DNA of 63,565 bases, counting the filler, from Deltaproteobacteria bacterium (GTDB lineage: Bacteria > CG2-30-53-67): assembly GCA_013151235.1 (NCBI GenBank). It is 2 parts of 2 records of this genome, joined end to end, with 100 filler letters (N's around TTAATTAATTAA, not from the genome) between each part and the next. Parts side by side here need not be neighbours in the genome. Positions count along the whole stretch, not along the records: positions 31,813 to 63,565 come from JAADIO010000052.1; 1 more part is not named here. One strand, written 5' to 3'. This document shows positions 31,378 through 61,633 of the stretch, piece after piece. The position numbers and the translations under genes are program-made. Positions within the stretch are counted from its first letter, which is position 1; every line of letters begins with the position of its first letter. The notes under the pieces are model-generated. The model saw only the letters and a program-made list of their open reading frames with translations, searched no databases and had not been told where the DNA came from.

Positions 31378-31379
31378 TT

Positions 31380-31712
31380 TTATAGTTCAGATTTTGATGA
31401 TTCCATTAACGTTTTTTTAATATGTTCTTTGACCGTGATCAAAAGATTACCATAGTCCATGAATACATCTCTTCCGGTATCCTCACCTAACCTTCGACAT
31501 GTCACAAATACGTCATATGATACCCCGAGTTTTGAGTCTTGCAATGTAAAGCCTGATTCTTGAGGAAATGAGTCTTCAATGACTACTTGTAAATTATGGT
31601 TTTCCTCAGCATATTCACCTACCATTAGTAAAATCGGAAATCTCCCTAGCCACTCTCTACCATCAGCGACATGTTGCTTATATCTTTCTGTAGCCTTATC
31701 ATTAGCTATAAT
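31380..31712 (-). CDS. Partial cassette gene, unknown function
   Basis: Open AT-rich frame from the gap to TAA at 31380. Confidence 0.6.
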   Translation of the reverse strand: MIANDKATERYKQHVADGREWLGRFPILLMVGEYAEENHNLQVVIEDSFPQESGFTLQDSKLGVSYDVFVTCRRLGEDTGRDVFMDYGNLLITVKEHIKKTLMESSKSEL

Positions 31713-31812
31713 NNNNNNNNNNNNNNNNNNNNNNNNNNNNNNNNNNNNNNNNNNNNTTAATTAATTAANNNNNNNNNNNNNNNNNNNNNNNNNNNNNNNN
31801 NNNNNNNNNNNN
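31713..31812. other. Artificial contig linker
   Basis: Exactly 100 bp: N44-TTAATTAATTAA-N44, which gives stops in all six frames. Confidence 0.9.
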
Positions 31813-39073: not shown

Positions 39074-39430
39074 TCACCCGGCCTCCACATGCCGGATCCC
39101 TTCTTCAAACAGAGTGCGCACATGATCGTCGTCGAGTGAGTAATAGACCATTTTGCCGTCCTTTCTCGATTTGACCAGCCGGGCGGAACGCAGAATACGC
39201 AGTTGATGAGAAATCGCTGATTGGGTTGCGTTGACCACGGCGGCAATGTCACAGACGCAGAGTTCTTCTTCGGAGATTGCGTGTAGAATTCTCACCCGGG
39301 TCGGTTCGGCCAGAACTTTGAAGATCTCGGCCAGGTCGACGATGGTTCGATCATCGTTCATCCGGGCCCTGGCTCTCTCCACCCGTTCTTTATCTACATA
39401 GTAGATCTGACAAATATCGTTTGCCGTCAT
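39074..39430 (-). CDS. ArsR/SmtB metalloregulator
   Basis: ELCVCDIA, SAISHQLRILR, YYSLDDDHV. Confidence 0.93.
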   Translation of the reverse strand: MTANDICQIYYVDKERVERARARMNDDRTIVDLAEIFKVLAEPTRVRILHAISEEELCVCDIAAVVNATQSAISHQLRILRSARLVKSRKDGKMVYYSLDDDHVRTLFEEGIRHVEAG

Positions 39431-39440
39431 ATCTGCTCGT

Positions 39441-39456
39441 ATGAATAGTCGTTCAT
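39441..39456. promoter_or_regulatory. SmtB/CadC-type operator
   Basis: ATGAA-TAGTCG-TTCAT just upstream of the arsR start. Confidence 0.6.
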
Positions 39457-39776
39457 GCGTTGTGGACAATTTACGTTGTTTTGATGTTCATGTCAAGAAG
39501 AATCTGAACAGAAGTTCCCCCAAAAACATCCACCCTCCAGGTCTCAATTGTTGAAAAGAAGAAGGACACTTGTTGTGCAACGTGTCCGGGGGGGGAGGGG
39601 CAAGATTCGGGGAAGTCCTGGAATCTGGATTTAAGATTCAAATTGTTGCCGCAAGGCTCTCAACCGGGACGTAAAATTTATTCGTTCTTTTTGACGGCTG
39701 CCGTCCGGAAAATCGGTTGATTTGACAAATGCTTGCCGGTGTGGTTTGTTTTAAAAAAACATAGAGGAGGAAGATC

Positions 39777-42317
39777 ATGTCACAGGATCCGGTTTGCAAC
39801 ATGGAGGTTTCGAGCGATTCCTCCAATCACTTCCACCACGAAGGGCAGGAGTATTACTTCTGCAGTGAACACTGCCTGCACAAGTTCAAAGAAAACCCGG
39901 ATGAGTTCGTAAAAACGGGGTCTTCCCTCGATCCGGTCTGCGGGATGGAGGTTTCGGACGATTCCTCCAATCACTTCCGCCACGAAGGGCAGGAGTACTA
40001 CTTCTGCAGCGAGCACTGCCTGAACAAGTTTAAAGAAAACCCGGATGGGTTCGTGAACAAGGCCCCTTCCGCGGAAACAGGCGGTGGAGCCGGCACCTAC
40101 ACCTGCCCGATGCACCCGGAGGTGATGCAGGACCACCCGGGTTCCTGCCCCAAGTGCGGGATGGCACTGGAACCGATGGTCGCTCCGGTTATGACGTCCG
40201 CAACCGCATATACCTGCCCGATGCACCCGGAGGTGATGCAGGACCATCCCGGCCCCTGCCCCAAGTGCGGCATGGCATTGGAACCGGTGACGGTGCAGGC
40301 CGAGGAGAAGAACGAAGAACTGATCTACATGAGCCGACGTTTTTGGGCCGGTCTCGTATTGACGATCCCCGTTTTCGTTCTCGCCATGGTTGCCGACCTG
40401 CTCCCGTCGTGGCTGCCGGCCGGCCTTTCCATGCACACGGTTCAATGGATCGAGTTTCTCCTGGCGACACCGGTCGTGCTGTGGGGCGGGTGGCCCTTCT
40501 TTGTCCGGGGTGTGCAGTCGGTCAGGACCTGGAACCTGAACATGTTTACATTGGTCGGTCTCGGCATCTCGGTCGCATGGGGATACAGTGTGGTAGCGCT
40601 TTTGTTCCCCGGGATCTTCCCGGCCGTCATGCGGAGTGACGCAGGCCTGGTCTCCGTCTATTTCGAGGCCGCGGCGGTGATCACGGTCCTGGTGCTGCTC
40701 GGACAGGTACTGGAACTGCGCGCCCGTTCCCGGACGAACGCCGCGATACAGATGCTCCTCGGCCTCGCTCCGAAGACGGCCCGTATCGTGCGGAAGGACG
40801 GGACCGAAGAAGATATCCCCCTGGAGGATGTGAAGCCGGGTGACACCCTGCGTGTGCGTCCCGGCGAGAAGATTCCCGTGGACGGCACGGTACTCGAGGG
40901 GGAAAGCAATGTCGATGAATCGATGGTCACCGGGGAGCCGATCCCTGTGGCAAAGTCGGCCGGGGAGAAACTGATCGGTGCGACGGTCAACGGGACGGGT
41001 GGCCTCCTGATGCGTGCGGAGAAGGTTGGCTCGGACACCCTCCTTGCACAGATCATCCGGATGGTGGCCGACGCGCAGCGTTCCCGGGCGCCGATCCAGA
41101 AGCTGGCCGACGTGGTCGCGGGTTATTTCGTGCCCGCGGTGGTTGCTATATCTTTACTCACATTTTTTATCTGGTGGGGTGTGGGGCCGCAACCGCGCCT
41201 GGCCCACGCGGTCATCAACGCCGTCGCGGTCCTGATCATCGCATGCCCCTGCGCGCTCGGTCTTGCCACACCGATCGCCATCATGGTGGGAACCGGCCGG
41301 GGTGCCATGGCCGGGGTCCTGATCAAGAACGCCGAGGCCCTCGAGATTATGGAAAAGGTCGATACCCTCGTCGTGGACAAGACCGGCACGTTGACGGAAG
41401 GGAAACCGAAGCTGGTCGCCGTACGCACCGAGGCGGGATTCACGGAGGACGAGGTGCTCCGCATGGCCGCCGGGCTCGAACGTGCGAGCGAACACCCCCT
41501 GGCGGAGGCGATCGTGGCCGGTGCGGAGGAGAAGGGAGTCGAACCGTCAAAAGCGGAAAACTTCCAGTCCGTAACCGGCAAGGGGGTTACGGGAGAAGTC
41601 GACGGGCACAGGGTCGGGATCGGAAATGTCAAGCTGCTGGAAGATTTGGGCATTGACCCGGGAGCGTTGCCTCAGGAGGCGGACCGACAGCGTGCCGAAG
41701 CGAAGACGGTGATGCTGGTTGCCGTGGACGGCAAGGCGGCGGGGCTGATCGCTGTCGCCGATCCGATCAAGGAATCGACGGCCGAAGCCATTCGCGATCT
41801 CCATGCAGAGGGGATACGGGTCGTCATGCTGACCGGTGACAGTCGGGCCACGGCAGAGGCCGTTGCCGGCAAACTGAAAATCGACGAGATACACGCCGAG
41901 GTCCTGCCGGAACAGAAGTCGGAGGTGGTGAAACGGCTCCAGGCGGAAGGGCGTATCGTCGCCATGGCGGGGGACGGGATCAACGACGCCCCGGCGCTGG
42001 CGCAGGCGCAGGTCGGAATTGCCATGGGGACCGGAACGGACGTGGCGATGGAGAGCGCGGGGGTGACACTGGTCAAGGGGGATCTGAGGGGGATCGTCCG
42101 GGCAAGGCGACTGAGCCGGGCCACCATGCGGAACATCCGGCAGAACCTCTTCTTCGCCTTCATCTATAATTCCGCGGGGGTGCCGGTTGCGGCCGGGATC
42201 CTCTATCCCTTCTTCGGGATCCTGTTGTCGCCGATCATCGCCGCTGCGGCCATGAGCTTCAGCTCGGTCTCGGTGATCAGCAATTCGCTGAGGCTGCGGA
42301 ATGTGCAACTCAACTAA
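39777..42317 (+). CDS. copA: Cu(I)/Ag(I) P1B-1 ATPase with 2 YHS and 2 heavy-metal-binding domains
   Basis: CPC, DKTGT, YN and MxxSS motifs; N-terminal DPVC..FCS..C twice and YTCPMHP..CPKCGM twice. Confidence 0.93.
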
Positions 42318-42357
42318 GCCGGCTTGGTAAAAGGTCCGCCAATTAAGGGAGAGAGTC

Positions 42358-43431
42358 ATGGAACGGGATCCGGTATGCAACATGGAGGTCAAAGAGGACT
42401 CGGCCCTGACTGTGGAACGGGAGGGAAAGACCTACTTCTTCTGCTCCGAGGGGTGCCGGAAGAAATTCCTCCGGGGGTCCGGAAATACGCATGACAAAAA
42501 GGTCTACGACCTCCTGATCCTCGGGGGGGGACCCGCCGGCCTGACGGCGGCGGTCTATGCGGCGACCCTGCGGATGGAGGCCTTCCTGATCACCAAGGAC
42601 CTGGGGGGCCAGGCAGTCGACAGCACGCAGATCGAGAATTACATGGGGTTCGATTTTATTGCGGGGACCGACCTGGTGAAGAAATTTGAGGATCAGCTTC
42701 TCCATTCCCACTACATCGATCACCGGATCGGCGAGGTCCGGAAAGTCGTCCCGGACGGAGAGGTATTCCGGGTCACCGTGGATGAAGGAGAGACCTTCCG
42801 GGCCCGTGCGCTGATCCTCGCCACCGGCATGCGCCGCAGGAGGCTGGACGTCCCGGGGGAGGAAGCCCTGCAGCGGCAGGGGGTCTTCTACGGCAACATT
42901 CAGGATGCCTCCTTTGTCGAAGGGGCGGATGTGGCGATCGTGGGAGGGGGGAACTCGGCCCTGCAGATCGTAGAGACCCTTCATTCCGTGGTCGGGACGA
43001 TCCACCTGATCTGCAATTCCACCCTCAAGGCCGACCCGATCGTAATCGAGCGGGTCGAGGCCTTCCCCGATCTCGTCAAGCACGAAGGATACGAGGTCCT
43101 GGAAATCACCGGGGAGAACAGGGTGGAGGGGATCTCCATCCGAAACCGGAGCGGCGGTGAAGTGGAGCATCTTGCCGTGGGAGGGGTCTTCATTTCCATC
43201 GGGCTCTACCCGGACTCCTCCATCTTTGAGGGATTGGTGGATCGAAACAAACGGGGAGAGATCCGAATCGCCCCCGACTGCTCCACCTCCCGGCCGGGGA
43301 TCTTTGCCGCGGGGGACCTGACCGACGCCTACGGCAAACGGATCGTCATCGCCTCGGGAGAGGGGGCCAAGGCCGCACTTGCCGCTCGGGAATACCTTCT
43401 GAAGTTGTCCTCCGGCCCTGCGGCGTCATGA
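42358..43431 (+). CDS. YHS domain fused to thioredoxin-reductase-like flavoprotein lacking CxxC
   Basis: DPVC..FCS..C, then GGGPAG, ATG, GGGNSA and AAGD; YGNIQD in place of YCxxCD. Confidence 0.85.
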   Translation: MERDPVCNMEVKEDSALTVEREGKTYFFCSEGCRKKFLRGSGNTHDKKVYDLLILGGGPAGLTAAVYAATLRMEAFLITKDLGGQAVDSTQIENYMGFDFIAGTDLVKKFEDQLLHSHYIDHRIGEVRKVVPDGEVFRVTVDEGETFRARALILATGMRRRRLDVPGEEALQRQGVFYGNIQDASFVEGADVAIVGGGNSALQIVETLHSVVGTIHLICNSTLKADPIVIERVEAFPDLVKHEGYEVLEITGENRVEGISIRNRSGGEVEHLAVGGVFISIGLYPDSSIFEGLVDRNKRGEIRIAPDCSTSRPGIFAAGDLTDAYGKRIVIASGEGAKAALAAREYLLKLSSGPAAS

Positions 43432-43594: not shown

Positions 43595-45721
43595 TTACGC
43601 AAATGATGCAACCGCAAGGAAGACGAGGAGTGCCAGGAGAGCGTACCCTGCATAGTTATTGATCCGGCCGTTGTGCATGCGGGCAAGCCGGCCGGCGATC
43701 CATTGTGCGGCGGCTGCCGGGGGATGTAGAATCAGGCGGTCGATCAGATGTACTTCCTCACGTTTCCGGCGGATTGCCACGCGGAAGTGCTCGGCGATGG
43801 TCTCGCTGCGGTTCACCACTCTGGGATGCAGGATCGCGTCAAAGATCACCCTCACGGGCTGGGCGAATCCGGTCGCCGTATAAGTCATCTCCGGCAGAAG
43901 GTGCCTGACTCCGCCGTCCCACCTGGGGCGGCGGACGACCCGGCGCCGTCCGGCAAAGACGAACCGTACGATGATTGCGCTGATACCGAGCAGGAAGATA
44001 AGGGTTAAAAACATGTACGAGGTGGACATGGCGAAGACGACGGGGTTTTTTGCTCCGCCGCGATGAAGGACCGCCAGGCCGCGGCCCGGGAGTATGCCCA
44101 AGCCGATCCGGGCGCCTAAATCGTGAAATTCGGAAGCGAAATCGGCAGGTAGTTGATCCGCGGGGGGATTTCCTGCAAAGAAGGGGGGGACGAGTGCGTC
44201 GGTGCCGCTCGCATTGGTGATCGGTAGCACGGCCCGGTCCACGGCAGGGATCACGTAGGTCGGAAGCACCCCCAGCGCCAGGCATACCAGTGCAAGGAAG
44301 GCCATAGAGGCAAGGGCCGACTTGCCGGTCTCCCGCGCGGTGGAGGCAGCCTTGGATCTGGGCATTCCCAGAAAGCCCATGGAGAAGGCCCGGACAAAAC
44401 AGGTGACGGCAAGTCCGGCGGTCAGCGCAAGACCGGCGCCTGCCGCCACAAAGGATATCTTGACACCGAGAGAGACCAGTTCCACGCTGCGCAGGAGTGA
44501 CTCGATCGTAAGCCATTCACTGACGAATCCGTTGAAAGGGGGCATGGCGGAAATGGAGAGTGTCCCGACCAGAACGAAAAGCCCGGTCCAGGGCATCTTT
44601 TTGAGCAGGCCGCCCAGGCGGTCGAGGCTCCGTGTTCCGGCAGCACTTTCCATGACCCCGGCCCCCATGAAGAGCAGGGTTTTAAAAACGGAATGGTTCA
44701 GAAGGTGATAGAGCGTTGCGACAAAGGCGATGGCAGCCGGGATCCGGTGACCGGTTGCAAGAAACAGAACACCGGCCCCAAGTGCGGTGGTGATGATCCC
44801 GGCGTTTTCGATGGAGCTGTGGGCCAGCAGCGTCTTGAAGTCGTCCTCAATGGTTGCATAGAGAATACCGATCAGGGCGGTGACCGATCCGGTAATGAGC
44901 ATGACGGCGCCGGTCCCGACCTGCGTAACCGGCAGCAGATCGGCAGTCACACGGATGATACCGTAGAGGCCGAGGTTCAATGTCGCTCCGGCAATCAGCG
45001 GTATGCATGCGGATGGAGCTGCGGTATAGGCTTGCGCGACCCAGAAATTCAAGGGGATCAATCCGGCTTTTACCCCGAATCCGATAAAGGAGAGGGCGAA
45101 AACGGTCCACCGTATGCCGTTTCCCAGGCCGGGGGCCGTTGTTCTCAATGCATCGAAGCTGAGTGCCCCGGAATGTACCGACAGTAACAGGAAGGCGGCC
45201 AGGACGGCAAGTGTACCCGCCTCGCCGGTGGCCAGCATGAGATACCCCGGACGCTCGCCGGCAACGGTGATCATCAGGTAGATGAGAATTGACATGATCT
45301 CCCAGGCCACGAGAAACAAAAATATATCCCCGGCGATAAGGACCAGGAGGATGGCGATTAACAGACCGAGGTACAGCGCGGCGAGGATGCCGCGATGACG
45401 TCCTTGATCGCAGCGTATTCGGTCGGCGGCGAAAATGGAAGCAGGCATGGCGACCAGAGCAGTGGCCACCAGGAAAAAAGCCGAGAGGTGATCAACGGTT
45501 ATGGTCAACTCCCCTGTGCCGGGAAGGGTCCAGAGCGAGGCATGGAAAGGGCCGGCGGCGAAGAGGGCGCCTGTGCCGTAGATCAGCAGCGTCAAAGAAC
45601 CGAGTCCGCCGAAGCCGGCCAGCGCAAAGGGGGATCTCTTTTCCGGCAGCAAGAGTACCGCCGTGATTCCCAGGGAATAGAGTCCGAAGGTGATGATCAG
45701 TAACTGGCCGGGATCGGTCAT
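43595..45721 (-). CDS. Ehr/Hyf antiporter-like membrane subunit (HyfB-like)
   Basis: WEIMS, GVKAGLIP, LAHSSIENAG, NHSVFKTLLF, PPFNGFVSEW. Confidence 0.9.
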   Translation of the reverse strand: MTDPGQLLIITFGLYSLGITAVLLLPEKRSPFALAGFGGLGSLTLLIYGTGALFAAGPFHASLWTLPGTGELTITVDHLSAFFLVATALVAMPASIFAADRIRCDQGRHRGILAALYLGLLIAILLVLIAGDIFLFLVAWEIMSILIYLMITVAGERPGYLMLATGEAGTLAVLAAFLLLSVHSGALSFDALRTTAPGLGNGIRWTVFALSFIGFGVKAGLIPLNFWVAQAYTAAPSACIPLIAGATLNLGLYGIIRVTADLLPVTQVGTGAVMLITGSVTALIGILYATIEDDFKTLLAHSSIENAGIITTALGAGVLFLATGHRIPAAIAFVATLYHLLNHSVFKTLLFMGAGVMESAAGTRSLDRLGGLLKKMPWTGLFVLVGTLSISAMPPFNGFVSEWLTIESLLRSVELVSLGVKISFVAAGAGLALTAGLAVTCFVRAFSMGFLGMPRSKAASTARETGKSALASMAFLALVCLALGVLPTYVIPAVDRAVLPITNASGTDALVPPFFAGNPPADQLPADFASEFHDLGARIGLGILPGRGLAVLHRGGAKNPVVFAMSTSYMFLTLIFLLGISAIIVRFVFAGRRRVVRRPRWDGGVRHLLPEMTYTATGFAQPVRVIFDAILHPRVVNRSETIAEHFRVAIRRKREEVHLIDRLILHPPAAAAQWIAGRLARMHNGRINNYAGYALLALLVFLAVASFA

Positions 45722-46476
45722 TGAGCGTCTCCTCCTCCCGTAGATGCAGCGGGCTTCATGGGTTGCACCGCCTCCTTGCGTCCGGCAAGGATCAGCAGGC
45801 CGTACAGGATGGCCGTCGGCGGGGGTGGACAGCCCGGGATTTCAAGATCAACCGGCAGGATGTCGGCGACCCCGGCGCCGGTCACGAAACCGGGTCCGAA
45901 CAGCCCGCCGCTCAGTGCGCAACTCCCGACGGCCGCAACCCGTTTCGGCTCGGGCATGGCCTCGTAAGCCTTCATCAGGGGGGTCTTCATCTGGTCGGTA
46001 ACCGGTCCGACCACCAGGAGGATATCAGCCTGCCGGGGTGTCGGGGTGATGAAAAAACCGAGCCGGTGCATATTATAGAAGGGATTGTTCAGGAGCCTGA
46101 CCTCGTTGAGGCAGGCCCCGCAGTCGCCGGCATCGACGATGCGGATGTGTAGTGATTGTCTGAATGCTTTCGGGAAAACCGATGAGGTTTTCTCAAGCTT
46201 CGCCCATTCGAATCCGGTCTCCCACCGGATCGGTTTCGCAGTCTCCCGTGCACATCGATAACAGTGGATACACCGTGCACGCTCCACAACGATCCGATCA
46301 TCCGCCTGCTGCAACGCACCTGCCGGACATAATGCGGTCAACCCTGCGCTGTCGGTCTTCCCGCAGACCGTATCCTGCGGCATTCCCGGGGAGGTCCCGG
46401 GGGTATCCTCCATTTTCGCCGGGTAACGAGTGGTGACCACCCCGGTTTGCAGGCCCTTGAGTATCCACCGGCTCAT
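45718..46476 (-). CDS. Ehr small subunit (HyfI/NuoB-like) with N-terminal ferredoxin-like segment
   Basis: CIHCYRC, then DAGDCGAC, GSCA, PGCPP. Confidence 0.88.
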   Translation of the reverse strand: MSRWILKGLQTGVVTTRYPAKMEDTPGTSPGMPQDTVCGKTDSAGLTALCPAGALQQADDRIVVERARCIHCYRCARETAKPIRWETGFEWAKLEKTSSVFPKAFRQSLHIRIVDAGDCGACLNEVRLLNNPFYNMHRLGFFITPTPRQADILLVVGPVTDQMKTPLMKAYEAMPEPKRVAAVGSCALSGGLFGPGFVTGAGVADILPVDLEIPGCPPPPTAILYGLLILAGRKEAVQPMKPAASTGGGDAQ

Positions 46477-46520
46477 ATTAAATGCCTCCTGATGATTCCA
46501 TAAAAAAGCCCCTCTGCCGG

Positions 46521-47579
46521 TTACGCCTTCGTCGTGATGTACAGGCCGGCGGCTGCAAAAAAAGCGATATACCCCATGATCAGGAACAGGGCTGTAAAGG
46601 ATGCGGTATCGTTTGTGTTTTCATCGGTGATATAGAGTTTGTAGGCAATCATGTTTGCCAGGGATCCGAAGATACTGCCGAACCCCCCGACGTTCGTTCC
46701 CCAGAGCAGGGCTTTCCAGTTTGATGTGAACTTTGCGAAGAGGAGCGTTGACGGGACATTGCTCATGATCTGCGAGGCGAGGGCGGAAAAGAGGAATACA
46801 TGCCCGGCGTGCTTGATCTCGGATGCCATCAGAATCTTCAGGTTTTCAGCAAGACCGAAGAAAAAGAAGAAGCTGAAGAGGAGGAAGTAGTCCACGTGCA
46901 GGGCTTCCCGGTCGAAGAGAAGTGCATAAACGACAACGATCCCTGAGGCGCGAATCGGCAGGATGTGCAGTACGGAGAGGAGGACGATGATCAGGAGGAT
47001 CCCGTGGACGCTGGACCTGGCCGTATTGTGCATTGCCTCGGTGCTTTCCGGCGTTGCCTGTAAATGAATCGTGAGGGACAGGATAACCGGGAATAGAATC
47101 ATCAGGGAAAAGGGGGCGATGGAGGTGATGAATTCCGCAGGGGACAGGTTGTAGAACCAGTAGATATAAAGATTCTGAGGGTTCCCGAAAGGGGTCAGGG
47201 CCGATCCTGCGTTTGCGGCCAGGGCCTCCAGAATCACGAGAAGGCCCCTCCTGTCGATGTTGAGCGCCAGGGTCAGCGGGACAATCACAAGGAGGGCGAT
47301 ATCATTTGTAACGACCATCGAAAGAAAGAATGTCGTGACGATCAATTTGAGGGGGACCCCTCTTCCTTTCTCGATGCTTCGGGCAAACCTCGATATAATC
47401 CCACTCTGCTGCAAGCCCTTGACCGCTATAAAGAGGACAAAGAGGATGAAGAGGACCTGCATTTCCCGGGGCGAGGGGACGGGCGGATGTCCCGTATAGA
47501 TGGATGTCAGGAGGAATCCAGTGCCGGAAGCGAGGAGCAACCATTCTTTTAGGATAAAATCGAACAATGCGTCTTTCAT
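46521..47579 (-). CDS. ArsB/NhaD/SLC13 (YbiR-like) ion-transporter superfamily permease
   Basis: VTNDIAL, AANAGSALTPFGNPQNL, SNVPST, NVGGFGSIFGSLAN. Confidence 0.85.
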   Translation of the reverse strand: MKDALFDFILKEWLLLASGTGFLLTSIYTGHPPVPSPREMQVLFILFVLFIAVKGLQQSGIISRFARSIEKGRGVPLKLIVTTFFLSMVVTNDIALLVIVPLTLALNIDRRGLLVILEALAANAGSALTPFGNPQNLYIYWFYNLSPAEFITSIAPFSLMILFPVILSLTIHLQATPESTEAMHNTARSSVHGILLIIVLLSVLHILPIRASGIVVVYALLFDREALHVDYFLLFSFFFFFGLAENLKILMASEIKHAGHVFLFSALASQIMSNVPSTLLFAKFTSNWKALLWGTNVGGFGSIFGSLANMIAYKLYITDENTNDTASFTALFLIMGYIAFFAAAGLYITTKA

Positions 47580-47612
47580 GTTGTCCCGGATCAGCCTTTC
47601 GTAATGAAGTCT

Positions 47613-49193
47613 TTACCTGTCGTTTTCGGCCACGGAGAGCCCGAACGTCGCCAGGATGATCGGGAAGTCCTGGAATGCAAAGTTCTCGGCCGCCAAGTGA
47701 AATCCGTGCCAGTTCGTGAAGGAGGGGGTGATCAGCCGGTACCTCTTCACCGTCCCTGCATCGTCGATGCGGATCCAGTGCCACGTTGCTCCGCGCGGGG
47801 CCTCGACCCCCGCCAGTGCAACCCCCTCTGCGGGTTTGCAGGGAACCCGGACCGGACCATTCCGCAGCGCCCCGGTTGCCTGCTCCATGAGATGGACCGC
47901 CTCCCTTGCCTCGGTGAGGAGTACCCGAAGGCGCGCATAGCCGTCCCCTTCATCCTCGCAGGGGAGGCGGAACTTGAAGGCATCGTAGGCCGCATAGGGC
48001 TGCATCCTCCTGAGATCGTTGCAGCAGCCCGACCCGCGGGCCACGGGACCTACGAGCCCATGGTTGCGGGCCTCCTCTCTGGTGACGATCCCCACTTCCT
48101 CGATCCGGTCGAGGAAACTGCTGGTGTTGATCAGTATTTTTTCAATTCCGTTCAGGCGCCGGACAATACCCCCGGCCCGGGCTACGGTCTTGCCGCATGC
48201 CCGGTCATCCAGGTCGCGGCTTAAACCGCCGGGGACAGCCATGCCGAAGAGATAGCGATGGCCGGTGAGACTGCCGGAAAGCCTGAGCGCCTCTTCCTCC
48301 AGGATCGCCGTCTGGTTTGCGGCGACGACCAGCCCGGTGGAGTTGCAGATTCCTGCGACGGTTCCCAGGTGATGGCGGAACCGTTCCAGTTCGGAGAGGA
48401 AGACCCTTAATACGCCGGCGCGTTCCGGTACCTCCGTGTCGCCGAGCTGTTCCACGGCCATGCAACCGGCGAGAGCGTGGGAGAAGGCCGTGGTGCCGGC
48501 GAACCGCTCGACCATGAGGAGCGCATCATCGTATGCGCGCCCTTCCGCTCTTTTCTCCACACCGCGGTATTTGAAAAAGAGCCGGGGAAAGATCCGAATC
48601 ACTTCTTCTCCGATGGTCTCCAACTGGAAATGGACGGATTCCGCATCGCCGGAGAAGATGGGACCGACCGGCATGATGAAGGCGCCGGGTGCATCCACGA
48701 TCCTTCTCGGCCGCCAGTTCCGACTTGGCCTGCGGTTGGCAAGGGTGGCATCGATATCAAATCCGTTGCGCATCGGTTCCACCCCTTCCTGCCAGGCATC
48801 GTCATGGAGGATAAAGTCTCCCAGGCGGGGATGCCCTTCAAATACCAGACCGAAGAGGTCCTCCGCCTCCCGCTCATGCCAGTCCGCGGCGTGGACCTCT
48901 CCGCAGATGCTTTTGCATAGACGTTTTTTTATGGGAGTATCGGTCCTTAACAGGATACGCCCCATCTCACCCTGCCCGGCGAAGAGGTAAAAAAGATCAC
49001 ACCGCTCGGCATTTTCTTCCACGATCAATCCGGCAAAATGATAGTTCCGCCGGTTGGATAGCCAGCCGCAGACCTTGGGCAGTTCGTCATTTCCGCACAC
49101 GATTTCGGTGATCCCATTCCGGATGCCGGTAACTTTTTCAATTGCAGCGGGCCAGAGGAGAGACGCTTGCTTCGTTACCTGCTCGATATTCAT
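47613..49193 (-). CDS. Ehr large subunit (HyfG/HycE-like NuoC+D fusion) lacking NiFe cysteines
   Basis: EREAEDLFG, RGVEK, VEAPRG; ERFAGTT and SVAENDR in place of RxCxxC and DPCxxC. Confidence 0.9.
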   Translation of the reverse strand: MNIEQVTKQASLLWPAAIEKVTGIRNGITEIVCGNDELPKVCGWLSNRRNYHFAGLIVEENAERCDLFYLFAGQGEMGRILLRTDTPIKKRLCKSICGEVHAADWHEREAEDLFGLVFEGHPRLGDFILHDDAWQEGVEPMRNGFDIDATLANRRPSRNWRPRRIVDAPGAFIMPVGPIFSGDAESVHFQLETIGEEVIRIFPRLFFKYRGVEKRAEGRAYDDALLMVERFAGTTAFSHALAGCMAVEQLGDTEVPERAGVLRVFLSELERFRHHLGTVAGICNSTGLVVAANQTAILEEEALRLSGSLTGHRYLFGMAVPGGLSRDLDDRACGKTVARAGGIVRRLNGIEKILINTSSFLDRIEEVGIVTREEARNHGLVGPVARGSGCCNDLRRMQPYAAYDAFKFRLPCEDEGDGYARLRVLLTEAREAVHLMEQATGALRNGPVRVPCKPAEGVALAGVEAPRGATWHWIRIDDAGTVKRYRLITPSFTNWHGFHLAAENFAFQDFPIILATFGLSVAENDR

Positions 49194-49197
49194 CGTG

Positions 49198-50649
49198 TTA
49201 TCCTCCAAGCGTTGTTGCGGCAAGCGTGATCAGCTTCTCAAGGGGACCCGGGATGAAAATTCCCAGGACAAGTATCGGTACTGCGGCGAATATCATGGTT
49301 GTTCTGCAACTCAACGGAAGGGGCTCAGGCCTTTCTCCCTCCCCTTCGATTGTCGGGGCCGACCCGAAAACCATACGGCTGACATGATTCATGATGGCGA
49401 AAAAGGCCACGGCGATAAAGAGGAGCAGCAACCCCACGGCGACATACTCCCCCCGGTGCAGCCCGGCTTTCAGGATGGAGAACTCGCTCATGAAGATCGC
49501 GAAAGGGGGCGCCCCGGCAATGGCCAGCCCCCCGAAAAGGAGAGCGACACCGGCACCGGGGGCCCTGGTGATCAGGCTGCGTACCTCAGCGATCTCCCGG
49601 GTGCCCGTCAGGAGCAGAACACTTCCTGCGGCGTAGAAGCAGAACGATTTTGTAACGGCGTGGGCCGTGATCTGCAGCATTGCAGCGGAAGACGCCGAAA
49701 CCCCTCCTAGGCCGACGGCGGTCAGGATGATTCCCATGTGCTCAATGGTGGAGAAGGCGAAGAGCCGTTTGTAGTCCTTGACCTGGACCAGCAGAAAGGC
49801 CGCCGTCCCCGCGGAGATCAGCCCGAAGACCAGCATCCAGGTATCCGGACTGACACCAGGTGCATTCCGCAGGATGGGGACCAGGCGGAGAATCGCGTAG
49901 AGGACGGCGGTGGTTTTTACGCCCGAGAGAAGTGCGCACACGGGTGTCGGCGCCTGGCTGTGGGCATCGGGAAGCCAGGTATGGAGCGGCACCAGTCCGG
50001 CCTTGGCGCCGAACCCGAGCAGAATCAGGGCAAAGGCCGTCCGCAACAGCACGGGTGACATACGGGGGGCGCCTGCCGCCAGCCCGGCCCAGGTATAGTG
50101 TTCGATACCGGCCCTTTGTGCCGCCCAGAAAAGGATCAGGAAACCGAGCAGAGCGATGGCCGCACCCATGACCGTAAGCACAACGTATTTCCACGCAGCC
50201 TCGAGGGCTTCGTGAGAGTTCTCAAACCCGACCAGCAGCACGGAAAACAGGGTGGTCAGCTCCACGGCGATCCAGATGATATTCGGCTCCTGGACCAGGG
50301 GCACCATGATCATGGAAAAGACAAAGAGGTTGAAATTTAGATAGTATCGACGCAGGTCGGCCCGGTTGTGATGCTTCATGTAGCCGATGGAAAAGAGAGC
50401 GGCCGTCATGTTTACAAAGGCGACCGGGATGAGAATGAGAGCGCCCGGTGCATCCAGGGCGATCCAGCCGGGGATTGCCGCCACGATGTGTCCGGGAGAT
50501 GTGATGACATTCAGGGCTGCCCGCACCGACAAGGCCAGCGTGGCCATCGCCGCGATCAGGGCGATGGTCGACTCGATACGTTCCCTGCGTGTGAGAAAAG
50601 AGAGTAGTGCGGCGGCCAGCGGTATCGTTATCAGAACAAAGAGGATCAT
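49198..50649 (-). CDS. Ehr antiporter-like membrane subunit (HyfF-like)
   Basis: WIAVELTT, EAAWKY, KAGLVPLHTWLPDAHSQAP, AFSTIEHMG. Confidence 0.92.
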   Translation of the reverse strand: MILFVLITIPLAAALLSFLTRRERIESTIALIAAMATLALSVRAALNVITSPGHIVAAIPGWIALDAPGALILIPVAFVNMTAALFSIGYMKHHNRADLRRYYLNFNLFVFSMIMVPLVQEPNIIWIAVELTTLFSVLLVGFENSHEALEAAWKYVVLTVMGAAIALLGFLILFWAAQRAGIEHYTWAGLAAGAPRMSPVLLRTAFALILLGFGAKAGLVPLHTWLPDAHSQAPTPVCALLSGVKTTAVLYAILRLVPILRNAPGVSPDTWMLVFGLISAGTAAFLLVQVKDYKRLFAFSTIEHMGIILTAVGLGGVSASSAAMLQITAHAVTKSFCFYAAGSVLLLTGTREIAEVRSLITRAPGAGVALLFGGLAIAGAPPFAIFMSEFSILKAGLHRGEYVAVGLLLLFIAVAFFAIMNHVSRMVFGSAPTIEGEGERPEPLPLSCRTTMIFAAVPILVLGIFIPGPLEKLITLAATTLGG

Positions 50650-51341
50650 TTGTCCGGCTCCTCCCTCAGTTTGGAGAGCCTTCCCACGGCGGTGTTTCCG
50701 ACTCGTTTATGGACGGCGCCGGTCAGCACACCCACCATGAAGGTCAATATGAGAACGTCAAAGGCCAGTGCCAGTTCGGCGATCAGGGGCAGGTTGGGGG
50801 CGATTGCCACCCCGGCGAAGAACGCCCCGTTTTCCATTGCCAAAAGCCCCAGGAGCTGCGGGACCGCCTCGCGGCGGACGGTCAGCGTATAGGCGCCGAG
50901 AAGGAGCCCGGCCAGGCCGATGGGGACATTAATGCGGACGGTTCCTCCTGCGGCGGCGGCCTTGATCCATGGAAGGCTGAAGAAATATGCAGCAATCGTC
51001 AGGATCAGAGCGATAATCAGTGAAGTCGGGATCTCGACCGCCTGCGAGATCTCCCTCCGTGTGTAGACCTCTTCACTCAACATGCGGCGCAGGAGCCACG
51101 GGAGGAACCAGACCTTCGTGAAGAGGTTGATCGTTCCCACGGCCATGAGATGCATGGAAAAAGGACGGAGGCCCAACAGAAACGCCGCCGCGACCAGACA
51201 GAGCGATTGGAGGATAAAGAACCGGAGGCAGGCGCGCACCTGGCGCGTGGCCACGATTCCGAAGGTGGCAATGATAAAAACACCTCCGGCAAGGGAGTCC
51301 AGGTTGGTCATGAGAGGCGTAATGTTTTGAAAGACCGCCAT
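50646..51341 (-). CDS. Ehr membrane subunit (HyfE-like)
   Basis: Hydrophobic protein with LLAMENG and ELALAFD motifs; operon position. Confidence 0.85.
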   Translation of the reverse strand: MAVFQNITPLMTNLDSLAGGVFIIATFGIVATRQVRACLRFFILQSLCLVAAAFLLGLRPFSMHLMAVGTINLFTKVWFLPWLLRRMLSEEVYTRREISQAVEIPTSLIIALILTIAAYFFSLPWIKAAAAGGTVRINVPIGLAGLLLGAYTLTVRREAVPQLLGLLAMENGAFFAGVAIAPNLPLIAELALAFDVLILTFMVGVLTGAVHKRVGNTAVGRLSKLREEPDK

Positions 51342-51352
51342 TCTCCGCCTCC

Positions 51353-52303
51353 TTAATGCGTGAAGACACTGGTCAGCATTGCGATGACTGCGATCACGAA
51401 TGCGGCGCTCATGAATTCACTGATCCGGAAGAGTCTCAGCTTCGCCAGTGATGACTCGATGAGAACAAGGAGCATGATAAAAAGGAGGATCTTGAACAGG
51501 ACCAGCGGAACGGCAGTGAGGATCGCACCCCACTCCAGGGTTGAAGCGAGCCCCCAGGGCGTCACGAGGACGTTCAGCAAAACGATCATGAGCACGAAAA
51601 ACTTCATCCAGCCGCCCCACTTCATGAGCGCGGCGCTCCGTCCCGAGTATTCCAGGTCCTTTGATTCATCGATCATGGCCAGTTCGAAATGACCGCTGGG
51701 ATTGTCGACGGGGATGCGCCCCTTCTCGGCCAGGATGAGCATGACGAAGGCGACCAGGAGCAGGAGATGCGACGGCTCGAAAAAATTGGCCGGGGGCGTC
51801 ACCCATTTCTGCTGTACGATAAAGGGGATGGTGGAATCGGCTACGAAGGAGACGGTAAAAAATACGATGAGAAAGATCGGTTCCGTCAGGAAACCAACCA
51901 TGCGGGTGCGGCTTGCCCCCATCGGGCCGTAAGGGTTTGCCGTATCCGCTGCCGCCAGTGCGGCAAAAAATCCGCCCAACGTTAGGACGAAACCGGCGCC
52001 GACCATGTCGGCCATGAATGCCCAGAAGAGAGGATAGTCGGTCAGGACGGGGATCAGGAGCGTCACAAAGATGGGGGTGATAAAGACGATGTAGGGAGCC
52101 ACACGAAAGATCCATGAACTCTCCTTCGGTACGATTTCGTCTTTGGAGAAAAGCTTTCGGAGATCCCGGTAGGGCTGGAGGATGCTCGGCCCCTTCTTGG
52201 ACTGTATAATCTCCTTCAGTCGGTTCAGCACCCCCGCCGCCAGGGGGGAGAATCCCATGACCATGAGTACCTGCAGGAGATTGAATAGGATACGCTTGCT
52301 CAT
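51353..52303 (-). CDS. Ehr membrane subunit (HyfC/HycD, NuoH-like)
   Basis: GPSILQPYRDLRKLFSK, GASR, EKGRIPVDNP, ELAMI..LEYSG. Confidence 0.92.
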   Translation of the reverse strand: MSKRILFNLLQVLMVMGFSPLAAGVLNRLKEIIQSKKGPSILQPYRDLRKLFSKDEIVPKESSWIFRVAPYIVFITPIFVTLLIPVLTDYPLFWAFMADMVGAGFVLTLGGFFAALAAADTANPYGPMGASRTRMVGFLTEPIFLIVFFTVSFVADSTIPFIVQQKWVTPPANFFEPSHLLLLVAFVMLILAEKGRIPVDNPSGHFELAMIDESKDLEYSGRSAALMKWGGWMKFFVLMIVLLNVLVTPWGLASTLEWGAILTAVPLVLFKILLFIMLLVLIESSLAKLRLFRISEFMSAAFVIAVIAMLTSVFTH

Positions 52304-52381
52304 GCCCGGCTCCTTCTCCCTGAAGATGAGTTTCGGTCCCCGAGTCGTACGGTCCGTCAAGCGGTGTATGAAGGCGGGCAC

Positions 52382-52405
52382 AAAAAAACCCGCTTTGCGG
52401 CGGGC
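52382..52405 (-). terminator. Intrinsic terminator of the riboswitch expression platform
   Basis: GCCCGC-CGCAAA-GCGGGT plus U-tract in the Ehr leader. Confidence 0.8.
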
Positions 52406-52452
52406 TCCAGACCGGACAGTACCGACTCCCCCGCCACAGAACAACCTCCGAG

Positions 52453-52503
52453 ACAGGAGTCATTAGCCGGATTCAGGCGATTGTACGGGAGACTCCATCC
52501 CCA
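52453..52503 (-). ncRNA. Fluoride riboswitch (crcB motif)
   Basis: GGGGAUGGAGUCUCCC-GUAC-AAUC-GCC..GGC-UAAUGACUCCUGU, with P1, P2 and GGAGUC/GACUCC pseudoknot matching the consensus. Confidence 0.92.
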
Positions 52504-52674
52504 CATTTTTAATTTCGTACGGTACCATGATATGAAAAAAAGTCAAGACTTTTCCCCGGCCTCTGACTCTGTGGGTTAAGCAAAGATCTTGAAGTATGCT
52601 CCCGCGTATATCCTATGGGGTTGAAAAGAGGCTGAAGGAGAAAGGATCAATCCCCATCTTTGCAGAAAATGTGA

Positions 52675-52730
52675 TTGACAGCGGGCTCCTTTTTTTTGTA
52701 CTTTAACGGTTGAGCATATGTTCAACCGTT
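52675..52730 (+). promoter_or_regulatory. Promoter and ArsR-type operator
   Basis: TTGACA-18-TACTTT, followed by palindrome AACGGTTGAGCATATGTTCAACCGTT. Confidence 0.75.
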
Positions 52731-52746
52731 TCAATGAATGGTTGCC

Positions 52747-53109
52747 ATGAAGAAACGAGACCGTACATCCTGTGAAATCACCTTCGTCGACCGGCGGAGA
52801 GTCGCATCCGTCAGGAAGAGGATGAAGAGCGACGAGACCCTGCTGCGCCTGTCGGAGACGTTCCGGGCACTGGGGGACCCCACGAGGATGAAGATCATCT
52901 TCGCCCTTTCTTTGGAGGAACTCTGCGTCTGTGATGTTGCCAACCTGCTGGGAACGACGAAGTCCGCCGTCTCCCATCAGTTGAGGATCCTGCGGAACAT
53001 GCGCCTGGTGAAATACCGCAAGGAGGGGAAGATGGTTTATTACTCCCTCGATGACGAACATATCGAAGATCTTTTTGAGATGGGATTACAACATGCGGAG
53101 GAGAAGTGA
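52747..53109 (+). CDS. ArsR/SmtB (CadC-like) metalloregulator
   Basis: ELCVCDVA, SAVSHQLRILR, YSLDDEHI. Confidence 0.93.
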   Translation: MKKRDRTSCEITFVDRRRVASVRKRMKSDETLLRLSETFRALGDPTRMKIIFALSLEELCVCDVANLLGTTKSAVSHQLRILRNMRLVKYRKEGKMVYYSLDDEHIEDLFEMGLQHAEEK

Positions 53110-55013
53110 TGGGTTGTTCTTGTGGCAAAAAAGAATGTATTGAAGGGCGTTGGTGGCGTCATCCCCCCATGCGGAACGCCCTGATTTCAGGTCTCGTGAC
53201 CGGCACGGCTTTTGTGCTGACCTATCTCGGGATCCTCCCGAGGTCGGCCGAGATTGTCATTTATCTCGTCGCCATCGCCATAGGAGGCTACCACTGGATG
53301 CGGGAGGGGGTTGAAGAACTGATTAAGGAGCGTGAGGTCGGGATCGATCTTTTGATGATCGCCGCCACGGTCGGTTCGGCGGTTCTCGGGATGTGGGACG
53401 AGGCCGCCTTCCTGGTCTTCCTGTACGGCGCGGCGGAGGGGCTGGAAGAATACACCTATGCCCGGACCCGGCATTCCATCCGGCAACTTCTCGACCTCGC
53501 TCCGAAAGAGGCCCGGGTCGTCCGGGAGGGGAAGGAGGTGACTATTCCGGCGGGAGAGATTCGGCCCGGGGAGGTCTTTATCGTCCGGCCGGGGGAGTCA
53601 ATCCCGACGGACGGGGTGATCATCACCGGCCGTTCTTCCGTGAACGAAGCGCCGGTGACCGGCGAGTCGGTCCCCGTGGAAAAGAAGAAGGGAATGAAGG
53701 TCTTCGCCGCGACGATGAACGAGGAAGGGGCGCTTACGATCGAGGCCACGGCCGGATTCGAAGACAACACCCTCTCCAGGATGATTCACATGGTTGAAGA
53801 GGCGCAGGACCAGAAAGGGCGGGTGCAGTTGTTCATCGACCGGTTCGGGAAGAGATACACACCGCTGGTGCTCGTCTTTGCCCTTGGACTTCTCATCGCG
53901 CCACCCATGTTCGGGCTCTCTTTTGCATACTGGGCGGAAAGGGCGGTCGTCCTTCTCGTTGCCGCCGCACCCTGTGCCCTTGTGATGTCGACCCCCGTGG
54001 CCATCGCTGCCGGGATCGGCCTGGCCGGCCGAAACGGGGTCCTGATCAAGGGGGGCGTGGCCCTGGAGAACCTGGCCCGGATCAGGGTCGTCGCCTTCGA
54101 TAAGACCGGCACCCTGACGCGGGGTAAACCGGTCGTCACCGATGTCGTATCGTTCAACGGGAGTGAGAGCGAGATGCTGAAACGGGCCTGCAGCGTGGAG
54201 CGGTTCTCCGAGCACCCACTCGCGCGGGCGATTGCCGAAAAAGCGGAGGCATCCGGGATTGAAGGTGTTGAGGTAAAAAGGTTCAGCTCGATCTCCGGCT
54301 ACGGCGCCCGGGCCGAGATTGATGGTGAGACCGTTTACGTCGGGAGCGACAAGCTCTTTGCCCGGTCCGGCCGGGATGGAGTCTCCAATGGTATGATCGA
54401 GGATCTCAGACGGGAGGGGAAGACGGTCATCTTTGTCGGCAGCGGGGAGAAGATCGACGGCATTATCGCCATCCGGGACGAGATCCGCCCCCGGTCGGAA
54501 GAGATCGTCTCCGCACTGCACCGGATGAGGATCAAGGTCGTCATGCTGACCGGGGACAACGAAACCAGCGCCGAGGCCGTCGCCCGTGAACTGAATATCG
54601 ATAAGGTACGGGCCGGGCTCAAACCCGAGGAGAAGATCCGGGTCGTCCGGGAACTGGAAGAAGAATACGGTGCCGTGGCCATGGTGGGGGACGGGATCAA
54701 CGATGCCCCGGCCTTAGCCGGTGCCACGCTCGGGATCGCCATGGGAGCGGCCGGGACCGATGCCGCCGTCGAGGCCGCCGACATCGCCTTGATGGGGGAC
54801 GACCTCGGGCGGATCCTCTATGCCGTCCGGCTCGGGAAGAAGTCCGGCCGGATCAGCCGGCAGAATATCGTTTTTGCGATCTCAACCCTGGCGGTTCTTA
54901 TCCCGGCCGCCCTTACTGGCTGGATGAGCATCGCCGTGGCCGTAATATTCCACGAGGCCTCGGAACTCATCGCCGTTGCGAACGGACTGCGGGTCGCTCG
55001 GGAAGGGGATTGA
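53109..55013 (+). CDS. Heavy-metal P1B ATPase (P1B-4-like, divalent cation)
   Basis: APC, DKTGT, TGES and HEASE motifs; short Cys-rich N-terminus. Confidence 0.88.
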   Translation: MGCSCGKKECIEGRWWRHPPMRNALISGLVTGTAFVLTYLGILPRSAEIVIYLVAIAIGGYHWMREGVEELIKEREVGIDLLMIAATVGSAVLGMWDEAAFLVFLYGAAEGLEEYTYARTRHSIRQLLDLAPKEARVVREGKEVTIPAGEIRPGEVFIVRPGESIPTDGVIITGRSSVNEAPVTGESVPVEKKKGMKVFAATMNEEGALTIEATAGFEDNTLSRMIHMVEEAQDQKGRVQLFIDRFGKRYTPLVLVFALGLLIAPPMFGLSFAYWAERAVVLLVAAAPCALVMSTPVAIAAGIGLAGRNGVLIKGGVALENLARIRVVAFDKTGTLTRGKPVVTDVVSFNGSESEMLKRACSVERFSEHPLARAIAEKAEASGIEGVEVKRFSSISGYGARAEIDGETVYVGSDKLFARSGRDGVSNGMIEDLRREGKTVIFVGSGEKIDGIIAIRDEIRPRSEEIVSALHRMRIKVVMLTGDNETSAEAVARELNIDKVRAGLKPEEKIRVVRELEEEYGAVAMVGDGINDAPALAGATLGIAMGAAGTDAAVEAADIALMGDDLGRILYAVRLGKKSGRISRQNIVFAISTLAVLIPAALTGWMSIAVAVIFHEASELIAVANGLRVAREGD

Positions 55014-61535: not shown

Positions 61536-61633
61536 GGGAGAGGATTCGGTGCTGGTGTCCGGCCCGGACTTCAAATCCGGTGGGGCGGCTTAACACCCCG
61601 CCTGGTGGGTTCGATTCCCGCCCTCTCCCGCCA
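61536..61633 (+). tRNA. selC: tRNA-Sec (UCA)
   Basis: 8-bp acceptor GGGAGAGG/CCTCTCCC, anticodon loop CT-TCA-AA, long variable arm, GCCA end. Confidence 0.95.

Follow-up and report, generated by a model that had tools for sequence, protein, structure and literature searches.

In the genome of a Deltaproteobacteria bacterium (GenBank assembly GCA_013151235.1; GTDB lineage CG2-30-53-67), a fluoride riboswitch precedes an operon for a membrane complex of the Ehr (energy-converting hydrogenase-related) type, the large subunit of which lacks the cysteines that bind the metals in [NiFe] hydrogenases. The stretch of DNA analysed, here called the window, is 63,565 nucleotides (nt) long, filler included; positions 31,813 to 63,565 are from JAADIO010000052.1, and the operon lies on the minus strand between 52303 and 43595. 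An aptamer was found in the same place at every homologous locus that could be assessed. The association is already known, under the wrong name of 'formate hydrogen lyase' (FHL); what is new is the recognition of a clade of NiFe-less Ehr complexes and, in the window, a permease gene inserted into the operon. The sequences indicate that the riboswitch-linked 'FHL' of the window's clade is an Ehr complex that is fluoride-controlled wherever this was assessable.

The first-pass annotation of the window had placed an aptamer at 52453–52503 on the minus strand and proposed that a covariance model be used to check it. Searching the window with the Rfam models (cmscan, gathering thresholds) bore this out, as that span is the core of a match to the crcB motif, RF01734, at 52447–52511 (minus strand). 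The match covers the model in full, from position 1 to 64, and scores 36.1 bits (E 2.5e-6), the gathering score being 34. This was the single fluoride-aptamer match in the 63.5-kb window and one of three RNAs detected there in total. The strands that would form the pseudoknot, one in the P1 loop and one in the 3′ tail, are complementary (GGAGU/ACUCC). The position upstream of the operon stood, while the spacing had been put at 150 nt and is 143 nt, measured from the 3′ end of the aptamer to the hyfC ATG at 52303. Reading of the sequence and a hairpin scan located a terminator-like hairpin with a U7 tract, a putative expression platform, at 52382–52404 (minus strand), with CCCGC (52404–52400) and GCGGG (52393–52389) separated by CGCAAA and followed by the U7 (52388–52382). 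A consensus terminator/promoter scan did not list this hairpin, though the separate hairpin scan found it, and no minus-strand promoter was found by the consensus scan. The sequence GGAGAAGGAG, 3′ of the hairpin and before the ATG, is the ribosome-binding site. An upstream strand of the leader, GUGGCGGG, is able to pair with CCCGCCGC, an alternative that would compete with the terminator, and this alternative hairpin is what the minimum free energy (MFE) fold of the leader contains.

When species-representative genomes were searched with the large subunit as query, 67 related loci were obtained, 52 of them close (41–68% large-subunit identity) and 15 distant and nuo-like (25–27%). The genomes with close loci are titled as Gamma-, Beta-, Zeta- and Deltaproteobacteria, Desulfocapsaceae, Verrucomicrobia, Opitutaceae, Acidobacteriota, Planctomycetota, Phycisphaerae, Gemmatimonadota, Thermoleophilia, Nitrospirales, Binatia, Spirochaetaceae and 'Thermotogae'; locus L036 is that of the Nitrospirales metagenome-assembled genome (MAG). 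RF01734 matches were present in 49 of these 52 genomes and in two of the 15 with distant loci. Aptamers were assigned to loci by their coordinates, the sequence was checked at each place, and a profile run on the loci with nhmmer as a cross-check also found aptamers within the loci themselves. A locus was assessable when the 5′ end of hyfC and the DNA upstream of it were present, which holds for 43 of the 52; contig ends exclude the other nine (L001, L007, L012, L036, L039, L043, L045, L048 and L052). In all 43, a same-strand RF01734 match was found upstream of hyfC (42/42 without L024, from a genome flagged as unpublished; L045, likewise flagged, is among the non-assessable loci). No aptamer was found within any of the 15 distant nuo-like loci.

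The gathering score was reached in 39 of the 43 loci, with 23.4, 26.1, 33.1 and 31.5 bits in L003, L004, L008 and L009, respectively. Between aptamer and hyfC there is a gap of 20–319 nt in 35 loci and a single intervening open reading frame (ORF) in eight, namely crcB in L014 and L046, a DUF190 gene in L022, a HEAT-repeat gene in L003 and L004, a gene for a dynamin-like GTPase in L016 and an ORF with no Pfam match in L011 and L020. The pseudoknot covaries over 44 operon-proximal aptamers, GGAGU/ACUCC (15) and GGCAU/AUGCC (13) being joined by the further compensatory types GAAGC/GCUUC, GGCUU/AAGCC and GGGGU/ACCCC; 36 of the 44 are fully paired, seven have four of five pairs and one was parsed out of register. 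Because the aptamer is in the same place at 43/43 assessable homologous loci, chance is excluded, and the link is not unique to this contig.

The ligands of the active site in group 4 [NiFe] enzymes lie in an N-terminal RxCGxCxxxH motif and a C-terminal DPCxxCxxH/R motif. The closest solved relative of the large subunit is Escherichia coli HycE (7z0s_E, E 1.6e-50), and in the alignment ERFAGTTAFSH stands opposite dRvCgiCgfaH of HycE, the two Cys being replaced by Ala and Thr. The protein lacks a C-terminal extension and terminates, without any Cys, in ...GLSVAENDR, so ERFAGTT and SVAENDR do replace the [NiFe] motifs, as first annotated. Among the related loci, the N-terminal motif is free of Cys at both ligand positions in 44 of 45, a single Cys being present at the first position in one locus and in 6 of 111 parsed database homologues, and the C-terminal motif is free of Cys in 45/45 loci and in 120/120 database homologues. 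As ERFA[AG]TTAFAH and [DG]LSVAENDR are almost invariant despite an overall large-subunit identity that averages 57%, the site of the replaced motifs appears to be constrained. Judged by sequence, the large subunit is a group 4 hydrogenase/NuoD homologue without NiFe-binding Cys, which is what characterises an Ehr complex, and the membrane module is likewise of Ehr type, with Proton_antipo_M domains in HyfB and HyfF and an NADHdh domain in HyfC.

None of CrcB, formate dehydrogenase, Hyp or HycI was found with Pfam among the seven operon ORFs and the 48 others in the window, and there is no HycB-type subunit in the operon or among these 55 ORFs. The only CLC protein in the window (25811–27601) has CBS domains, is ClcB-like, has no aptamer and lies outside the operon. 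The operon was therefore correctly described as without fluc/crcB, formate dehydrogenase or maturation genes. The claim that the product is not an FHL is also upheld, by the loss of all four [NiFe] Cys positions, by scores that reach no NCBIfam Hyf or Nuo cut-off and by the lack of a formate dehydrogenase or maturation gene in the window.

All seven genes of the closely spaced hyfC-E-F-G-[permease]-I-B operon that had been annotated are present, co-oriented and separated by gaps of −4 to 44 nt. The first, hyfC (51353–52303, minus strand as for all seven), encodes a NuoH/HycD-like membrane subunit of 316 amino acids (aa) with an NADHdh match in Pfam (7.5e-31), and scores 52.8 bits against NuoH in NCBIfam, far under the cut-off of 305. 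It is followed by a hyfE-like gene for a small membrane subunit of 231 aa (50646–51341), assigned from an NCBIfam match to a hydrogenase-4 membrane subunit (61.5 bits, cut-off 136) and from its syntenic position in related loci; it has no Pfam match. The hyfF-like gene (49198–50649) encodes an antiporter-type subunit of 483 aa related to NuoM/N and MrpD (Proton_antipo_M, 6.3e-49), the closest solved relatives of which are subunit H of MBS and MBH, and which scores 338 bits against NCBIfam HyfF (cut-off 610). The large subunit, an EhrL-type fusion of NuoC-like (30k) and NuoD/HycE-like (49k) parts (47613–49193, 526 aa; Pfam Complex1_30kDa, Complex1_49kDa and NiFeSe_Hases), has NuoD as its top NCBIfam match (213.6 bits, cut-off 360), and homologues of 526 aa cover 100% of it from the ATG at 49193.

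Beyond the permease gene (46521–47579), the small-subunit gene (45718–46476, 252 aa) encodes an N-terminal ferredoxin-like domain (CP...CxxCxxC), for which the Pfam Fer4 match is weak, and a NuoB/HyfI-like part (Oxidored_q6, 7.4e-25). The final gene, hyfB (43595–45721), encodes a NuoL-like antiporter-type subunit of 708 aa (Proton_antipo_M, 1.5e-38) with a long C-terminal extension, the NuoL model spanning residues 71–705; it scores 494 bits against NCBIfam HyfB (cut-off 667). A convergent gene follows, and the operon ends at 43595, distant from the runs of N in the window (31266–31812). The curated NCBIfam cut-offs for Hyf, Hyc and Nuo families were reached by no subunit. NuoE, NuoF and NuoG are not found in the operon and the NuoH, NuoD and NuoB scores are under their cut-offs. 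Searches with Pfam and NCBIfam found none of the MrpB, C, E, F and G families, only MrpA/D-like domains.

HyfC is the most conserved subunit in the clade (56–87% identity, mean 74%), the others averaging 55–58%. In HyfF, E130, K216 and K334 are kept in 42–43 of 43 sequences, with Lys or Glu at position 245; judging by the MBS and MBH alignments, these are presumably the canonical positions of antiporter subunits. The membrane arm appears able to translocate ions, and the antiporter-like subunits with their conserved Glu and Lys give substance to the ion-translocating part of the first-pass proposal. In the small subunit, the first three Cys of the proximal cluster are present in 46/46 sequences and the fourth, in PGCPPPP, in seven (the window, L001, L003, L004, L005, L016 and L038), while the N-terminal CP...CxxCxxC is kept in 39–46 of 46. 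The interface module appears to be under constraint and is likely to bind iron-sulphur (Fe-S) clusters. A module for ion movement only, as first proposed, is not what these conserved motifs suggest; they point to a redox-driven machine. The three-Cys Fe-S site of most clade members is unusual and is next to the former NiFe pocket. In an alignment with complex I, dRLDYv is matched by eRFAGt and gpLHpgtHg by gpIFsgdAe, where the Tyr and His of complex I are presumably the quinone-site residues of NuoD.

An independent, unbiased sample of 151 genomes was drawn from the phylum of one carrier. Its HyfC-like genes fall into three tiers of identity, and RF01734 was searched in 34 further HyfC-positive genomes of the sample, G006 having been covered in the first genome search. 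At 70–73% HyfC identity the aptamer was found in 4/4 genomes, each time on the contig and strand of the gene and 106–247 nt upstream of it. No adjacent aptamer was found in the four genomes at 40–43% identity or at the 30 matches at 26–33%, and where aptamers are present in genomes of the latter tier, they lie over 700 kb from the gene or on a different contig. The large subunits of six lower-tier loci (four at 40–43%, two at 26–33%) are also without the NiFe Cys, with motifs such as GRVSGD[ST]TVAH and AAGDTTVGH; these are therefore other Ehr types, and the fluoride link is specific to the clade of the window. It belongs to one Ehr clade and not to Ehr complexes in general, so the wider idea of Ehr operons at large being fluoride-linked was abandoned. 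These six loci (L075–L080, from G085, G167, G131, G202, G135 and G094) lack a fluoride aptamer, and their genes are arranged as hyfB-hyfC-hyfE-hyfF-large subunit-small subunit.

The clade extends at least to 59% HyfC identity, the value for Eoetvoesiella caeni DSM 25520. In this strain a 48.1-bit aptamer lies about 50 nt before hyfC, which is followed by hyfE, hyfF, the large-subunit gene, the small-subunit gene and hyfB, and the large subunit contains ERFSGSAAFAHA and GLSVAESDR. Plasmid carriage of the clade was considered and rejected, as the plasmids in PLSDB contain only HyfC relatives of 36–41% identity and no clade member.

The permease encoded between the large and small subunit genes of the window (352 aa) matches CitMHS in Pfam (2.1e-22; 80.1 bits, cut-off 31.9) and has no NCBIfam or PDB match. 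It is a member of a large family that is well conserved: its relatives number 1222 database proteins at E ≤ 0.001, the top ones 60–71% identical, and the sources name them NhaD/arsenite permease-like (NhaD/ArsB), YbiR or SLC13. The third-position GC content of the gene (GC3, 0.705) is in line with its neighbours. When the 10-kb flanks of the 52 related loci were searched with tblastn, no permease was found, and the large and small subunit genes are adjacent in all 52. Three of the 52 carrier genomes encode a relative, at 64, 38 and 35% identity, the 64% copy being on another contig. Of seven permease loci among the metagenome matches listed, none was accompanied by an aptamer (E ≤ 0.01) or by Ehr genes. 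The embedded permease is therefore not a general component of the system; we interpret it as an insertion specific to this lineage, its position between the two subunit genes being seen in the window only. A general place for it in the fluoride regulon was rejected on the same small sample (0/52 loci, 3/52 genomes and 0/7 listed metagenome loci).

Further aptamers within these loci stand before genes for crcB, DUF190, enolase, MutS-domain-V, dynamin-like GTPase, HEAT-repeat, CBS and AAA proteins, families that have long been tied to the fluoride riboswitch (PMC2864571, PMC11139923); crcB, enolase and MutS-like genes are common in the neighbourhood of the operon. In four loci, crcB is part of the operon, before hyfC in L014 and L046 and after hyfB in L030 and L038; in the last two, crcB is accompanied by DUF190, both co-oriented with hyfB and downstream of it. 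L013, L020, L021 and L043 have one or two additional HyfB-like genes, and the total of antiporter-like genes ranges from two to four.

Several of the MAGs contain dense 'fluoride islands' made up of short transcription units, each with its own aptamer and often arranged as divergent pairs. L008 includes five aptamers, with seven on the contig, L042 has four within 4.4 kb and contig C37 of G050 has 11 RF01734 matches. E. caeni DSM 25520, a betaproteobacterium, has nine RF01734 matches in about 23 kb (G054 contig C10, 36–67 kb; L084:1–20000 and L085:1–11000), which precede genes for a dynamin-like GTPase and DUF6062, cyclopropane-fatty-acid synthase, crcB-DUF190, enolase with two MutS-domain-V proteins, citrate synthase, small ORFs without a Pfam match and the Ehr operon. 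Dynamin-family GTPases of about 570–700 aa recur beside the Ehr operon (L016:5023–6801, L030:4813–6531, L042:4277–6043, L014:15571–17313, L008:15312–17024 and L084:935–3028), three directly after an aptamer, two at a distance and one, in L014, with no aptamer nearby; the pattern is similar for HEAT-repeat and AAA ATPase genes.

In the window itself the operon is set in a metal-homeostasis neighbourhood (39074–43431 and 53106–55013). Encoded there are two P-type ATPases, one of them with YHS and HMBD domains, a regulator of the ArsR type and, at 42358–43431, a pyridine-nucleotide disulphide oxidoreductase that has a YHS domain at its N-terminus. A DtxR-like repressor and two FeoAB systems are farther from the operon. 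The riboswitch is immediately preceded, on its own strand, by a candidate ORF of 161 aa with no Pfam or NCBIfam match (52576–53061, minus strand). The window also contains a tRNA-Sec gene (61536–61629, plus strand, 73.3 bits), hence the organism probably makes selenoproteins, and a long-arm tRNA at 21987–22070 (plus strand).

The fluoride riboswitch was reportedly associated with formate hydrogen lyase genes by Baker in 2012, and Ehr complexes are said to have been originally defined in 2013. 'Formate hydrogen lyase' genes were already placed downstream of the crcB motif in 2010 (PMC2864571), the label was repeated in literature from 2021 and 2024, the latter being a review (PMC11139923), and these genes are counted among those most commonly controlled by fluoride riboswitches (PMC2864571, PMC11139923). 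The review interprets FHL as a shift to formate oxidation in anaerobic fermentation. It also describes acidification of the cytoplasm and a reduced proton-motive force on entry of hydrogen fluoride (HF), a need for proton-motive force in F− export, and Na+/H+ antiporters as the second commonest riboswitch-linked class after exporters (PMC11139923). Ehr complexes, for their part, had no known function as of 2019 and 2023 according to two papers, neither of which mentions fluoride (PMC6349859, PMC10284858), and the Ehr of Nitrospira has been placed near group 4f (PMC10284858). A full-text literature search, with subscription papers and supplements outside its reach, found no link of Ehr to fluoride and no report of the riboswitch-linked genes as NiFe-less Ehr. 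Many members of exactly the window's clade are labelled 'formate hydrogenlyase subunit 5' by JGI, which explains the FHL name given to the riboswitch-linked genes. For this clade the formate-oxidation interpretation is not warranted, given that the [NiFe] ligands are absent and that no formate dehydrogenase or maturation gene was found in the operon or window.

We infer that fluoride induces the operon and that its product is an ion pump with a redox drive and a physiological role in fluoride stress. The riboswitch would be an ON switch, coupled here to an intrinsic terminator, that controls production of a minimal complex-I-like, NiFe-less Ehr membrane complex comprising HyfC, HyfE, HyfF, HyfB, the Cys-less large subunit and the small subunit with its Fe-S motifs. 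The clade would then be part of a fluoride-stress regulon in many phyla, the unrelated IT-family permease having presumably been inserted into the operon in the window only. Switched on by rising cytoplasmic fluoride, the complex would act as an electrogenic pump for a cation (H+ or Na+), probably driven by electrons via both of the conserved Fe-S sites. Such a pump would restore the membrane potential and cytoplasmic pH that are dissipated by HF influx and F− cycling, and may in this way supply the driving force for F− efflux via the Fluc (CrcB) channels, which are encoded beside the complex in many genomes. On balance we think it somewhat probable that the complex is such a fluoride-induced, probably Fe-S-driven cation pump, supporting membrane potential and pH and energising Fluc.

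A number of observations weigh against this interpretation. The fourth proximal position of the small subunit is Asn in 25, Gln in nine, His in four and Gly in one of the sequences (39/46), and because the fourth Cys is kept in only 7/46, redox competence is uncertain for most of the clade. Opposite the quinone-site Tyr and His, the complex has Gly/Ala and Phe/Ala, and neither an electron-input module nor an acceptor can be named from the genes of the operon. No fluoride exporter was seen in the window, there being no CRCB match among its ORFs. As regards the RNA, the margin of the window aptamer over the Rfam cut-off is small (36.1 against 34 bits), the stability of the leader MFE fold does not differ significantly from shuffled sequences (z −1.8), and folding gave no clean terminator/antiterminator register. 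The hairpin scan found a simple terminator in just 7 of the 43 leaders from related loci, and the way in which the operon is controlled therefore appears to vary across the clade. Finally, all 52 close loci are from MAGs, titled as more than 10 higher taxa, and the sole cultured carrier found, E. caeni DSM 25520, is a more divergent member of the clade.

A rival explanation is an Mrp-like secondary Na+(K+)/H+ antiporter that is independent of redox chemistry, uses an existing gradient to correct pH during fluoride stress and retains the hydrophilic arm as a structural or regulatory relic. The lost fourth proximal ligand in 39/46 sequences, an operon with no donor or acceptor module, and the absence of NiFe ligands and of the quinone-site residues all fit such a device, as do the varying number of antiporter-like subunits (two to four) and the frequency of Na+/H+ antiporters among riboswitch-linked genes (PMC11139923). 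However, three proximal Cys in 46/46 sequences and CP...CxxCxxC in 39–46 of 46, across phyla, are hard to square with it; the highest conservation is in HyfC and the replaced 'active-site' motifs, a pattern unexpected for a relic, and the MrpB, C, E, F and G families were not found. We regard the antiporter as unlikely, though it is the foremost of the alternatives. Somewhat less probable again is a clade that constitutes a dedicated, horizontally spread fluoride-defence machine, a minimal complex-I-like pump in which a remodelled active site responds to or handles fluoride, so that redox or ion-gradient energy is coupled directly to detoxification and does more than energise the membrane in general. 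The composition of that active site, which would comprise ERFAATTAFAH, DLSVAENDR and an Fe-S cluster with a non-Cys fourth position in most members, is proposed just as tentatively. If true, this would be the first physiological function for an Ehr complex and a new class of fluoride-resistance protein. Direct handling, in which F− or HF is bound by the former NiFe pocket and the HyfC channel while the antiporter modules couple ion flow or redox energy to active fluoride expulsion, as a primary or secondary pump, is very unlikely in our estimation. It draws on the strict riboswitch linkage (43/43 loci and 4/4 sample genomes), the invariant and remodelled pocket motifs, the Fe-S site with a non-Cys fourth position beside the pocket in most clade members and the lack of crcB in the window operon, but many carriers have crcB within the operon or beside it, which argues for a complex that complements the channel and does not replace it; a known fluoride-binding motif was not identified, and such a pump would be without precedent.

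The complex could instead be a fluoride-insensitive bypass, a membrane redox reaction that replaces a step of energy metabolism inhibited by fluoride, much like the extra copies of enolase, with any ion pumping incidental. Enolase, citrate synthase and other metabolic genes are found behind aptamers in the same islands and the Fe-S motifs are conserved, yet the six-gene core has no conserved substrate-specific module. Moreover, the known targets of fluoride are phosphoryl-transfer enzymes and not enzymes like complex I, and we consider a bypass decidedly improbable, if less remote than direct expulsion of fluoride. As for a true FHL or H2-evolving group 4 [NiFe] hydrogenase, the JGI labels, the wording of the literature and HycE as the closest solved relative are what can be said for it. 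Neither CxxC ligand motif is present in the window or across the clade, which refutes it at the sequence level, and with no formate dehydrogenase, HycB, Hyp or HycI in the operon or window and NCBIfam Hyf scores below their cut-offs, its probability is close to nil.

Two unconnected literatures, one on the 'FHL' of fluoride riboswitches and the other on Ehr complexes of no known function, describe the same genes, and fluoride stress is the first testable physiological cue for an Ehr clade. The metabolic interpretation current in the fluoride field, formate oxidation, is corrected. The linkage suggests that fluoride tolerance may need a dedicated membrane-energising complex besides the Fluc channel, which would be relevant to fluoride-tolerant hosts for organofluorine chemistry. 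With E. caeni DSM 25520 as a cultured carrier, the question is directly testable.

Compared with the riboswitch-linked 'FHL' genes already described, the system of the window shares RF01734 in the 5′ untranslated region of hyf/hyc-like genes and the crcB, enolase and mutS-like neighbours; it differs in that the clade is without [NiFe] ligands, in that no formate dehydrogenase or maturation gene was found in the operon or window, and in the permease that the window adds. That permease resembles the IT-superfamily permeases of the NhaD/ArsB/YbiR type in its CitMHS match and in its relatives of 60–71% identity, and is set apart by its place, seen in the window only, inside an Ehr operon that a fluoride riboswitch precedes. 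With Ehr complexes in general the complex has in common a group 4-related large subunit without CxxC and the Mrp/Nuo antiporter-like and NuoH-like subunits, whereas only its own clade is linked to the aptamer, in every assessable case, the other HyfC-like loci of the sample not being so. The FHL and hydrogenase-4 of E. coli have homologues of its subunits in HycD/HyfC, HycC/HyfB, HyfE, HyfF, HycE/HyfG and HycG/HyfI, including the fused NuoC-NuoD large subunit. In contrast to these, the complex of the window has no NiFe Cys, no C-terminal extension and no separate HycB, HycF or FdhF, its only ferredoxin-like domain forms part of the small subunit as a fusion, and its equivalog scores are below the cut-offs. 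With complex I, the MBH and MBS of Pyrococcus and Mrp it shares an arm of NuoH-, NuoK/J-, NuoN/M- and NuoL-like subunits with conserved Glu and Lys, and with complex I and MBH/MBS also the NuoB-/NuoD-like interface module with Fe-S motifs. Unlike complex I, it has no N-module and does not conserve the positions aligned with the quinone-site Tyr and His; unlike the Mrp antiporter, it is without MrpB, C, E, F and G; and in most members of its clade the proximal cluster has three Cys ligands only.

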